From IMG/VR virus record IMGVR_UViG_2879731240_000002: 26,245 bases of DNA; one strand, written 5' to 3'. Source of the DNA: a virus (Duplodnaviria > Heunggongvirae > Uroviricota > Caudoviricetes). The notes beneath the pieces are model-generated. The model made no database searches and was not told the origin of the DNA. It was given only the letters and a program-made list of their open reading frames with translations. Of this stretch, positions 14,826 to 15,117 are shown in pieces. The translations under genes and the position numbers were made by a program. Each line of letters opens with the position of its first letter. Position 1 is the stretch's first letter.

Positions 14826-15117
14826 AGCCTCACCTCCGCAAATAACGGATGGCGTAGTTTTACACTGAGAAATGAAAGGGATTTGAAAAGAAAAAACCGC
14901 AAAAGCGGGCGAAACGATATATACAATAAGGAAAGCACTCTATCCAACAAACCACTCACAGTTAATCGGAATAAAAGCAGAGTGCTTATGAATGATCGCC
15001 TGCCCGAAGGTTAGTATTTCTGCACAGCAATTTTGCAAAAAAAAGCGATCATTCATAACTTAAACGTCTTTCAGTCACTCCGGGATTTCCCATCATCGCA
15101 GACTGAAAGACTCTGAC

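Follow-up and report, generated by a model that had tools for sequence, protein, structure and literature searches.

Three conserved RNA stem-loop modules and a weak intrinsic terminator in the spacer between the tRNA cluster and the holin gene of a lambdoid prophage

What is held in the seemingly empty spacer between the tRNA genes and the holin gene of a lambdoid prophage? The question was raised by the IMG/VR virus record IMGVR_UViG_2879731240_000002, a stretch of 26,245 nucleotides that is called the window here. It carries a defective lambdoid prophage with its late operon on the minus strand, and the spacer in question lies between tRNA-Gly and the holin gene at 15117..14826 (-). In lambdoid prophages, the interval from Q and the late promoter PR' to the lysis genes is a site for toxins, tRNAs, and regulatory small RNAs (sRNAs). 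An earlier sequence-only reading had given the order as Q-like gene, terminator, tRNA cluster, and S holin, with the spacer ahead of the holin, and had proposed a structured RNA, the footprint of an excised cargo, or a regulatory element for it. The order was borne out as Q, PR' and its terminator tR', tRNA cluster, spacer, and P21-type holin, with all parts on the minus strand. Our analysis indicated the first of these: the spacer encodes three autonomous, conserved RNA stem-loop modules, designated HP1, HP2, and HP3, and a weak intrinsic terminator, on the late-transcript strand.

The modules correspond to three inverted repeats, each 100% complementary: I1 (14986-14999/15045-15058, 14 nt), I2 (15066-15076/15101-15111, 11 nt), and I6 (14933-14941/14979-14987, 9 nt). 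The repeats had been described as nested and long-range; all were present at the sites given, slightly longer than described and beyond chance, but they lie side by side. They form three consecutive minus-strand hairpins, HP1 (15111..15066), HP2 (15058..14986), and HP3 (14987..14933), the last two overlapping by two A residues at 14986-14987. The minus strand of the whole spacer folded at -91.2 kcal/mol (z -4.27), with none of 200 shuffles as good, compared with -67.5 kcal/mol (z -2.46) for the plus strand. When folded singly, the hairpins had z values of -3.5 (HP1), -4.7 (HP2), and -4.7 (HP3).

The spacer was found at about 98% identity in 530 of 5426 complete E. coli genomes (roughly one in ten), always on the chromosome and with a median of one copy; PGAP leaves it without annotation. 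Among 50,697 phage records, BLAST matched it in six, including the E. coli phages phi467, vB_EcoS-689R5, PhiR47_1, and vB_EcoM-606R7, and HK639 at 76% identity; in Salmonella Fels-1 the element is present in part. Pattern scans of IMG/VR gave more than 150 loci. The exact core of HP1 was found only in the E. coli and S. flexneri genomes in a pattern scan of representative-genome contigs, in which the other 9 matches were attributable to chance.

The main alignment comprised 46 distinct homologues with a consensus of 59 pairs. The consensus pair cells were 98.9% paired, compared with 39-47% when the 3' partners were slid by 1-3 columns, and compensatory changes on both sides were seen at 11 pairs, compared with 0-4 after sliding. 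In 500 column shuffles, neither the paired percentage nor the covariation score of the real alignment was attained. Much of the signal was contributed by two clades, one of E. coli type and one of HK639 type, and the independent events are therefore fewer than the cell counts suggest; broader alignments made per module added lineages and agreed, with several covarying pairs each in HP1 and HP2. Moreover, many pairs are invariant or one-sided G-U pairs, which would be A.C mismatches on the opposite strand. Since these pairs are valid only on the minus strand, the late-sense RNA is the selected molecule. The relevance of this strand, to which both the fold and the G-U pairs point, had gone unrecognised in the sequence-only reading, although its proposal of a structured RNA agreed with the strand-specific fold and with the covariation across homologous prophages.

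The same observations bear on the possibility that the repeats are a feature of the DNA only, either a scar left by excision of stx or other cargo or a mosaic recombination boundary, with no function as RNA. The spacer does occupy the exact slot for moron insertion, the modules are reshuffled by recombination, and some loci are interrupted by insertion sequences (IS). In addition, the likeness to the layout of Shiga toxin (Stx) phages stood up, in that phage 933W is annotated with a promoter 'pT' at the matching position, three tRNAs, and a terminator ahead of stx. The footprint itself found no such backing. The repeats did not match the flanks of the stx cassette, no Stx phage was among the six matching phage records, and no module was detected when covariance models of HP1-3 were run against the Q-to-S interval of 933W (19.5-27.5 kb) and against lambda. 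Compensatory substitutions, unlike a scar, indicate selection on RNA pairing, as do the strand-specific G-U pairs, and a DNA-level origin, largely refuted by the covariation, is regarded as highly improbable.

Could the conserved sequences instead be coding? The slot had been reported to contain no open reading frame (ORF). This is not strictly true, as a sense ORF of 38 aa (MNDRFFLQNCC...GWFVG, 15056..14940) and short antisense ORFs are present; the sense frame is broken among homologues. A small protein from this ORF would explain the conserved 'loop' sequences, and the frame is open through FLQNCC and GWFVG in several divergent homologues. A hypothetical protein is also annotated here in one phage record, but on the opposite strand. 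Against this, the ORF is truncated in the commonest natural variant, whose T-run is shorter by one T. The clades also differ by 1-nt indels that shift the frame in mid-protein, and the HK639 frame stops before GWFVG. Furthermore, the ATG lies inside the 14-bp P2 stem of HP2 with no Shine-Dalgarno sequence, and three of the 46 sequences had no ORF of at least 25 aa. A coding function is thus hardly credible for this locus.

HP1 (15066..15111, -), identified by inverted repeat, fold, and covariation, begins 6 nt past the 3' end of tRNA-Gly. Its basal part is an 11-bp stem followed by a bulged U and by G-U and C-G pairs. The internal loop consists of the bulge GAU (15097..15095) and the dinucleotide GA (15094..15093) facing GA (15080..15079), and the apex is a 4-bp stem UGGG/CCCG with the tetraloop AAAU. 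A kink-turn requires a canonical (C) stem ending in a Watson-Crick pair, a 3-nt bulge, and tandem sheared G.A/A.G pairs that open the non-canonical (NC) stem, and HP1 shows this order as GC | GAU | GA | UGGG ... CCCG | GA | GU. Judged by its match to this consensus, HP1 is a kink-turn-like hairpin.

Known kink-turns include the U4 snRNA 5' stem-loop, box C/D, and Kt-7. HP1 is similar to them in its Watson-Crick C stem, variable 3-nt bulge, conserved tandem G.A/A.G, mostly non-Watson-Crick 3b.3n position, and short capped NC stem. Among the variants, the bulge reads GAU, AAU, UAU, GAA, or GAG, and the 3b.3n position is U.G, U.U, A.G, or A-U. The tandem GA was retained except in one lineage (L147 and Fels-1), in which, unlike in the known motif, UA replaces the non-bulged GA; the kink of HP1 is itself a prediction from sequence. 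To our knowledge, E. coli has no binder of the L7Ae family. A different origin of HP1, as a decayed copy of tRNA-Gly, was considered for the shared GAUGAUG..GGG..CCCG and was rejected: the local alignment score of 20 was attained by 104 of 2000 shuffles, and tRNA-Lys scored 21.

HP2 (14986..15058, -) was identified by the same three kinds of evidence and is a three-way junction. It consists of a 14-bp basal stem P2, an 8-bp stem P2a with the near-invariant loop AAAUUGCUG, and a short P2b, CC-UUCG-GG. Compensatory changes were found at four P2/P2a pairs. With the HP2 covariance model (R3), the window copy scored 98.5 bits and the Fels-1 copy 82.3 bits. An internal promoter within HP2 (TTGCAA-16-TACTAA/TACTGA) was rejected, as the -10 hexamer lacks the conserved final T and was not called by the promoter scan. 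Divergent HP2-like three-way junctions, with the 5' arm UUUGCAUGGGUGCUG and the 3' arm ...CCCAGCCGAAUAC, were observed in the place of HP2 after HP1 in L173 (12900-12975) and in L033, which suggests that the HP2 superfamily is wider than HP2 itself.

HP3 (14933..14987, -), likewise identified by inverted repeat, fold, and covariation, is a bulged hairpin with an outer stem of 8-9 bp, a 7-nt asymmetric 5' loop, and inner stems of 6 bp and 4 bp. Its 3' strand is near-invariant and G/U-rich, reading GAGUGGUUUGUUGGAU in the window and GGGUGGUUUGUUGGRU in most homologues, and it pairs by wobble with a variable 5' strand. The outer-stem pairs showed up to three Watson-Crick types (UA, CG, and AU). 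The HP3 model (R1) scored 76.7 bits.

A weak intrinsic terminator, recognised from sequence and fold, follows HP3 at 14886..14908 (-), after an A/U-rich linker of 24 nt (14932..14909). It consists of the hairpin CCGC-UUUU-GCGG (14908..14897) and the immediate U-run U6CU4 (14896..14886), has 4 bp and a fold of -6.6 kcal/mol (z -1.9), and was missed by a simple terminator scan; termination here is a prediction from the G+C-rich hairpin and U-run on the transcribed strand. In relatives the stem has 5-9 bp, and 5 bp in most. A terminator-like hairpin was found within 60 nt past HP3 in 56 of 75 distinct HP3 loci, usually at 12-28 nt and with at least six unrelated sequences, and HK639 has a terminator annotated by its depositors at the matching place after the element. 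The short hairpin with a T-run that the sequence-only reading had described ahead of the holin is therefore present on the minus strand, about 60-70 nt ahead of the holin start, but it is weak and its plus strand has no T-run. Control of read-through into the lysis genes, the accompanying idea, is plausible for the terminator, given its recurrence, and for the terminator only.

The leader of the holin gene, with its Shine-Dalgarno sequence, occupies 14826..14885 (-). In this region GCGGAGGUG (14840..14831), at the Shine-Dalgarno sequence, is complementary to CACCUCCGCA (14784..14775), in codons 14-17 of the holin ORF. This repeat, I3, is 10 nt long and 100% complementary, and it is absent from the minimum-free-energy fold. 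From the complementarity, its pairing could mask the ribosome-binding site of this holin, which is of class II and has a dual start.

The modules do not always occur together. For these comparisons the covariance models R1, R2, and R3 represent HP3, HP1, and HP2, respectively. HP2 and HP3 without HP1 stand directly after tRNA-Gly in L140, L143, L144, and L148; in L137, L139, L146, and others, where tRNAs are missing altogether, the pair follows small moron ORFs or an IS5 copy. HP1 and HP2 without HP3 were found in L005 and L052. HP3 alone, right after PR'-tR' or after a moron, was found by pattern scans in L164, L165, L173, L177, L179, and L182, and in L164 and L165 it has no terminator before the next ORF. 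Model R2 detected HP1 in Fels-1, L173, and L182. A moron ORF lies between HP1 and HP2 in Fels-1, HP1 follows tRNA-Met instead of tRNA-Gly in L182, and the order in L173 is HP3, terminator, HP1, HP2-like hairpin, and terminator. All cases examined had the modules on the late strand, past Q/PR' and ahead of a lysis cassette, together with four holin types and at least three Q types.

Several further observations concern the same slot. In HK639 (L002 3254-3459), a previously unannotated STnc100 (RF02076) was found directly 3' of the HP1-3 terminator, with 52.6 bits, above the gathering score; this copy extends to the next annotated terminator. In HK639 the late leader is therefore built as a series of RNA cassettes, every one with a terminator at its end. 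In one viral contig (L153 and L176 represent the same IMG/VR contig) HP3 is split by an insertion of the IS3 family, and an IS5-like transposase lies just 5' of HP2 in L146; from these two cases, the slot is an insertion hot spot. Moreover, a repeated GGTGAATCCCCC...GGCTCACCGGGAGGCACCCGGCAC element was observed in late leaders, sometimes twice, at 1300-1420 and 1700-1800 in L163 (Fels-1), at 6460-6560 in L182, and past HP2 in L005-type loci. It resembles the 5' part of PasD/STnc100 and ERIC-like repeats.

Do the modules belong to a described family? A covariance search with Rfam release 15 gave no match inside 14826-15117 even at E<=10; the families covered include AgvB, AsxR, STnc100, IsrK/J, sok, tRNA-like elements, and ribozymes, and membership was judged by the gathering threshold. 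For the HK639 homologue, only sub-threshold matches to istR, isrB, and rsmX were obtained, which were driven by the UUCG terminator. A blastn comparison of the spacer with PasA/PasC and PasD1/2 of the EPEC strain E2348/69 (739.5-744.5 kb; pas gene coordinates from Table S6 of PMC8550237) gave only chance 9-11-mers, and the HP models found nothing in that region. No description of the element was found in literature searches. The three motifs are accordingly absent from Rfam, and the kind to which they belong is that of the non-coding RNA elements of the PR' moron slot and of tRNA-operon trailers.

Prophage sRNAs are known to cluster at the moron site 3' of PR' (PMC4104026), and the Pas sRNAs adjoin the holin operon. 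The moron-slot sRNAs (AgvB/AsxR, the EcOnc RNAs, PasA/PasC, and PasD/STnc100) resemble the element in that they are non-coding, share its slot between Q/PR' and the holin gene of Escherichia and Shigella lambdoid prophages, and are often closed by an intrinsic terminator; the HK639 element is directly 5' of an STnc100 copy. They differ from it in that no similarity was found by sequence or covariance model, and the element is far more structured, has no evident seed, is built from three hairpins that shuffle independently, and is physically joined to the 3' end of a tRNA.

A further comparison is with tRNA-operon trailers. The tRNA cluster, with Met/Ile2(CAU), Lys(UUU), Thr(UGU), and Gly(UCC), occupies 15118..15427 (-) according to ARAGORN and the Rfam tRNA matches. 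A sigma-70 promoter of the unit, TTGCAA-17-TATTAT, was called by the promoter scan at 15437..15465 (-), about 10 nt 5' of the first tRNA. Its hexamers, TTGCA(A/G) at -35 and TATTAT at -10, were kept across loci, and the promoter spacer and all upstream sequence diverged completely. A transcription start site has been reported for a tRNA promoter of this type in the StxS paper (PMC7547250). Because the promoter is conserved, the 933W layout shows the same succession of promoter, tRNAs, and terminator, and a start site has been reported, the promoter, tRNAs, HP1-3, and terminator are considered an autonomous moron-like unit between tR' and the lysis cassette. This unit should be transcribed in lysogens.

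Within it, the 3' end of tRNA-Gly is at 15118, HP1 follows from 15111, and the terminator lies at 14908..14886, all in the same transcript, which is the location of a 3' external transcribed spacer (3'ETS). RNAs derived from such spacers are released by RNase E, are stable, and bind Hfq or sponge sRNAs. An example is 3'ETS-leuZ, the 3'ETS RNA of a tRNA operon, and the tRNA cluster of phage T4 likewise yields the stable RNAs C and D. These RNAs share with the element the position of a co-transcribed non-tRNA RNA between the last tRNA and the operon terminator; unlike them, the HP modules are also found without any tRNA.

The tRNAs of the unit varied in an uneven manner. The anticodon of the second tRNA (15274-15350 (-) in the window; homologues in L001-L123) was hypervariable: Lys-UUU in 59 loci, and elsewhere Arg-UCU, Phe-AAA, Leu-UAA, Leu-CAG, a UUA 'stop' anticodon (a possible suppressor), and one loop that ARAGORN could not assign. 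The Met/Ile2, Thr, and Gly tRNAs, unlike the second, were unchanged across loci. The variable anticodon may reflect tuning of codon supply or evasion of anticodon nucleases.

What, then, might the hairpins do? We tentatively favour a role in cis, from position and analogy, in which they serve as punctuation for processing and stability of the late leader, together with insulation by the terminator; the case for it falls somewhat short of even. In the lysogen, the tRNA unit would be transcribed from its own promoter and stop at the terminator, so that S stays silent. After antitermination, the Q-modified polymerase would read through the terminator, and the spacer would join a long untranslated late leader. 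The hairpins would act there as double-strand or structure-specific processing sites of the RNase III or RNase E type and as end-protecting stem-loops. The lysis mRNA would thereby be freed of tRNA or moron segments, and the new ends would be protected. As HP1 lies 6 nt past the tRNA 3' end, cleavage of the trailer would leave it as the hairpin at the 5' end of the RNA that follows. Punctuation in cis was favoured over one integrated trans-acting RNA because the hairpins are shuffled independently and stand at unit boundaries.

Precedents for such punctuation are the intergenic R sites of phage T7, which are RNase III processing hairpins, and reportedly the Q-dependent lambda late leader, with whose RNase III processing sites a 1988 paper by Daniels et al., listed in PMC7547250, is said, by its title, to be concerned. 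Like these, HP1-3 are conserved interrupted hairpins between functional units of a long phage transcript. They differ in that there is no sequence relationship, lambda is without HP1-3, and a kink-turn-like loop or a three-way junction breaks up the helices. An RNase III site calls for about two helical turns of (coaxial) double-stranded RNA and for cleavage in vivo that depends on rnc; P2 (14 bp) and P2a (8 bp) of HP2 could stack to 22 bp, and HP1 and HP3 are interrupted.

Several observations weigh against punctuation in cis. The interrupted stems are not ideal 20-22-bp substrates of RNase III, and the terminator of the window is weak. All three modules are missing from lambda and 933W and are therefore not required for late expression generally. 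The near-invariant P2a loop, the HP3 3' strand, and the kink-turn core exceed what simple end-protecting hairpins need and could equally belong to a trans-acting RNA; under either explanation, strong sequence conservation in the internal loops and strands implies that a specific factor recognises them. Moreover, free-standing sRNAs, too, typically have a hairpin, an A/U linker, and a terminator in this recurring order, and the HK639 element is in tandem with STnc100, a bona fide sRNA gene.

These observations lead to the alternative that one or more stable RNAs are released and act in trans, which we regard as possible but rather unlikely. The RNA would be a trailer cut from the tRNA precursor, in the manner of the 3'ETS of an E. 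coli tRNA operon, either of about 190-215 nt or as a fragment of HP3 and terminator, and would serve, like other sRNAs of this slot, as a prophage regulator or sponge, predicted to bind a protein through the HP1 kink-turn and the conserved loops, or Hfq/ProQ and sRNAs. Its own conserved promoter would provide expression in lysogens, the succession of hairpin, A/U-rich linker, terminator, and U-tail is found repeatedly although the terminators are unrelated, the tandem STnc100 of HK639 has its own terminator, and the conservation of loop and strand sequences goes beyond pairing needs. The clustering of prophage sRNAs 3' of PR' (PMC4104026) and the position of the Pas sRNAs beside the holin operon would also suit it. 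However, one integrated RNA would not be expected to have hairpins that shuffle, stand alone, and change order, as these three do. A long conserved single-stranded seed is lacking, the clades do not share the sequence of the linker ahead of the terminator, and there was no match to known sRNA families. A search of the phage loci for a conserved target complementary to the HP3 3' strand gave only scattered 9-10-mers.

A role at the level of transcription was also weighed, as put-like antitermination, pausing, or enhancement or insulation of the terminator, by which read-through into the lysis genes would be set. The abutting HP2 and HP3 upstream of terminators are superficially like the two-stem put RNA (PMC9378689), the terminator usually lies 12-28 nt past HP3, and HK639, a carrier, is an HK022-like phage. 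The put RNA of HK022 and HK639 is likewise formed by adjacent stem-loops of the nascent transcript 5' of terminators. It is, however, a two-stem RNA of about 70 nt made from early promoters in phages without N and involving the zinc-binding domain of the RNA polymerase beta' subunit, whereas the element has about 130-190 nt, with modules twice the size of put, lies in the Q-controlled late leader, not the early operon, and consists of hairpins that occur separately. Moreover, with Q encoded by every one of these phages, a further antiterminator would be redundant, and a constitutive antiterminator after a tRNA promoter active in lysogens would express the holin. HP3 occurs without a terminator in L164 and L165, and no switch by alternative pairing with the terminator was evident. 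Control of this kind is considered improbable.

Whether the modules act in cis or in trans, a seemingly empty spacer was found to hold conserved, covarying RNA modules absent from Rfam in about one tenth of complete E. coli genomes and in Shigella, and thus new candidates for prophage RNAs expressed in lysogens. If they are processing or stability signals, as favoured here, they would bear on the excision of tRNAs from the late transcript, the level of holin mRNA, and lysis timing; if they act in trans, they would be new prophage regulators. For an enterobacterial mobile element, a natural kink-turn hairpin such as HP1 would be a rarity, and the three covariance models can be used directly for annotation. 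A bolder proposal, which we consider unlikely, is that HP1-3 are not passive processing hairpins but three undescribed RNA motif families with dedicated host or phage factors, forming a modular toolkit of decoys, anti-defence RNAs, or regulators of lysis timing. If that were true, HP1 would be a natural platform for a kink-turn protein in an organism thought to be without L7Ae-type binders, provided by prophages in about 10% of E. coli.

The surroundings of the spacer complete the late operon. The genes upstream are DUF968, RusA, and the antiterminator Q (16315..15626, -; PF06323). A PR'-like late promoter, TTGCAA-17-TATATT, was found by the promoter scan at 15609..15637 (-), overlapping the end of Q and leading directly 3' of it. 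It is followed by a short PR'-to-tR' leader RNA of roughly 70 nt (15533..15606, -; Rfam and hairpin scan), similar in position to lambda 6S and IsrK, which is closed by the tR' hairpin and U-run at 15558..15535 (-), seen in a scan for terminator-like hairpins. The leader gave sub-threshold Rfam matches to isrK and isrJ of 22.5 and 23 bits. At the homologous position, isrJ scored 34.6 bits in HK639 (L002 2755-2827) and isrK scored 25.3 bits in L165 (2021-2086). These sub-threshold matches in three phages suggest that the IsrK/J family of the Salmonella Gifsy phages extends to these late promoters.

Downstream of the spacer, the holin S gene (14610..14825, -) encodes a class II, P21-type protein of 71 aa with the dual start MKSM (PF04971, 1.4e-35). 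Domains of IS66 and IS1 were found beyond it. The IS66-family element (12243-14600), with TnpA, TnpB, and an N-terminal fragment of TnpC, starts about 20-30 nt past the holin stop, is itself cut by IS1, and stands in place of the remaining lysis cassette. The prophage has thus retained S and lost the endolysin and spanin genes. Other RNA matches in the window were a group II intron domain (23801-23887, -), the CssrB sRNA (1004-1183, -), the IS009 RNA (44-247, -), and a sok antitoxin RNA within the early region of the prophage (18328-18503, -). The CssrB and sok matches and the number of IS elements point to a chromosome of Shigella or E. coli. In addition, the window contains the chromosomal genes for tRNA-Ser(CGA) at 20646-20735 (-) and tRNA-Asn(GUU) at 21727-21802 (+).

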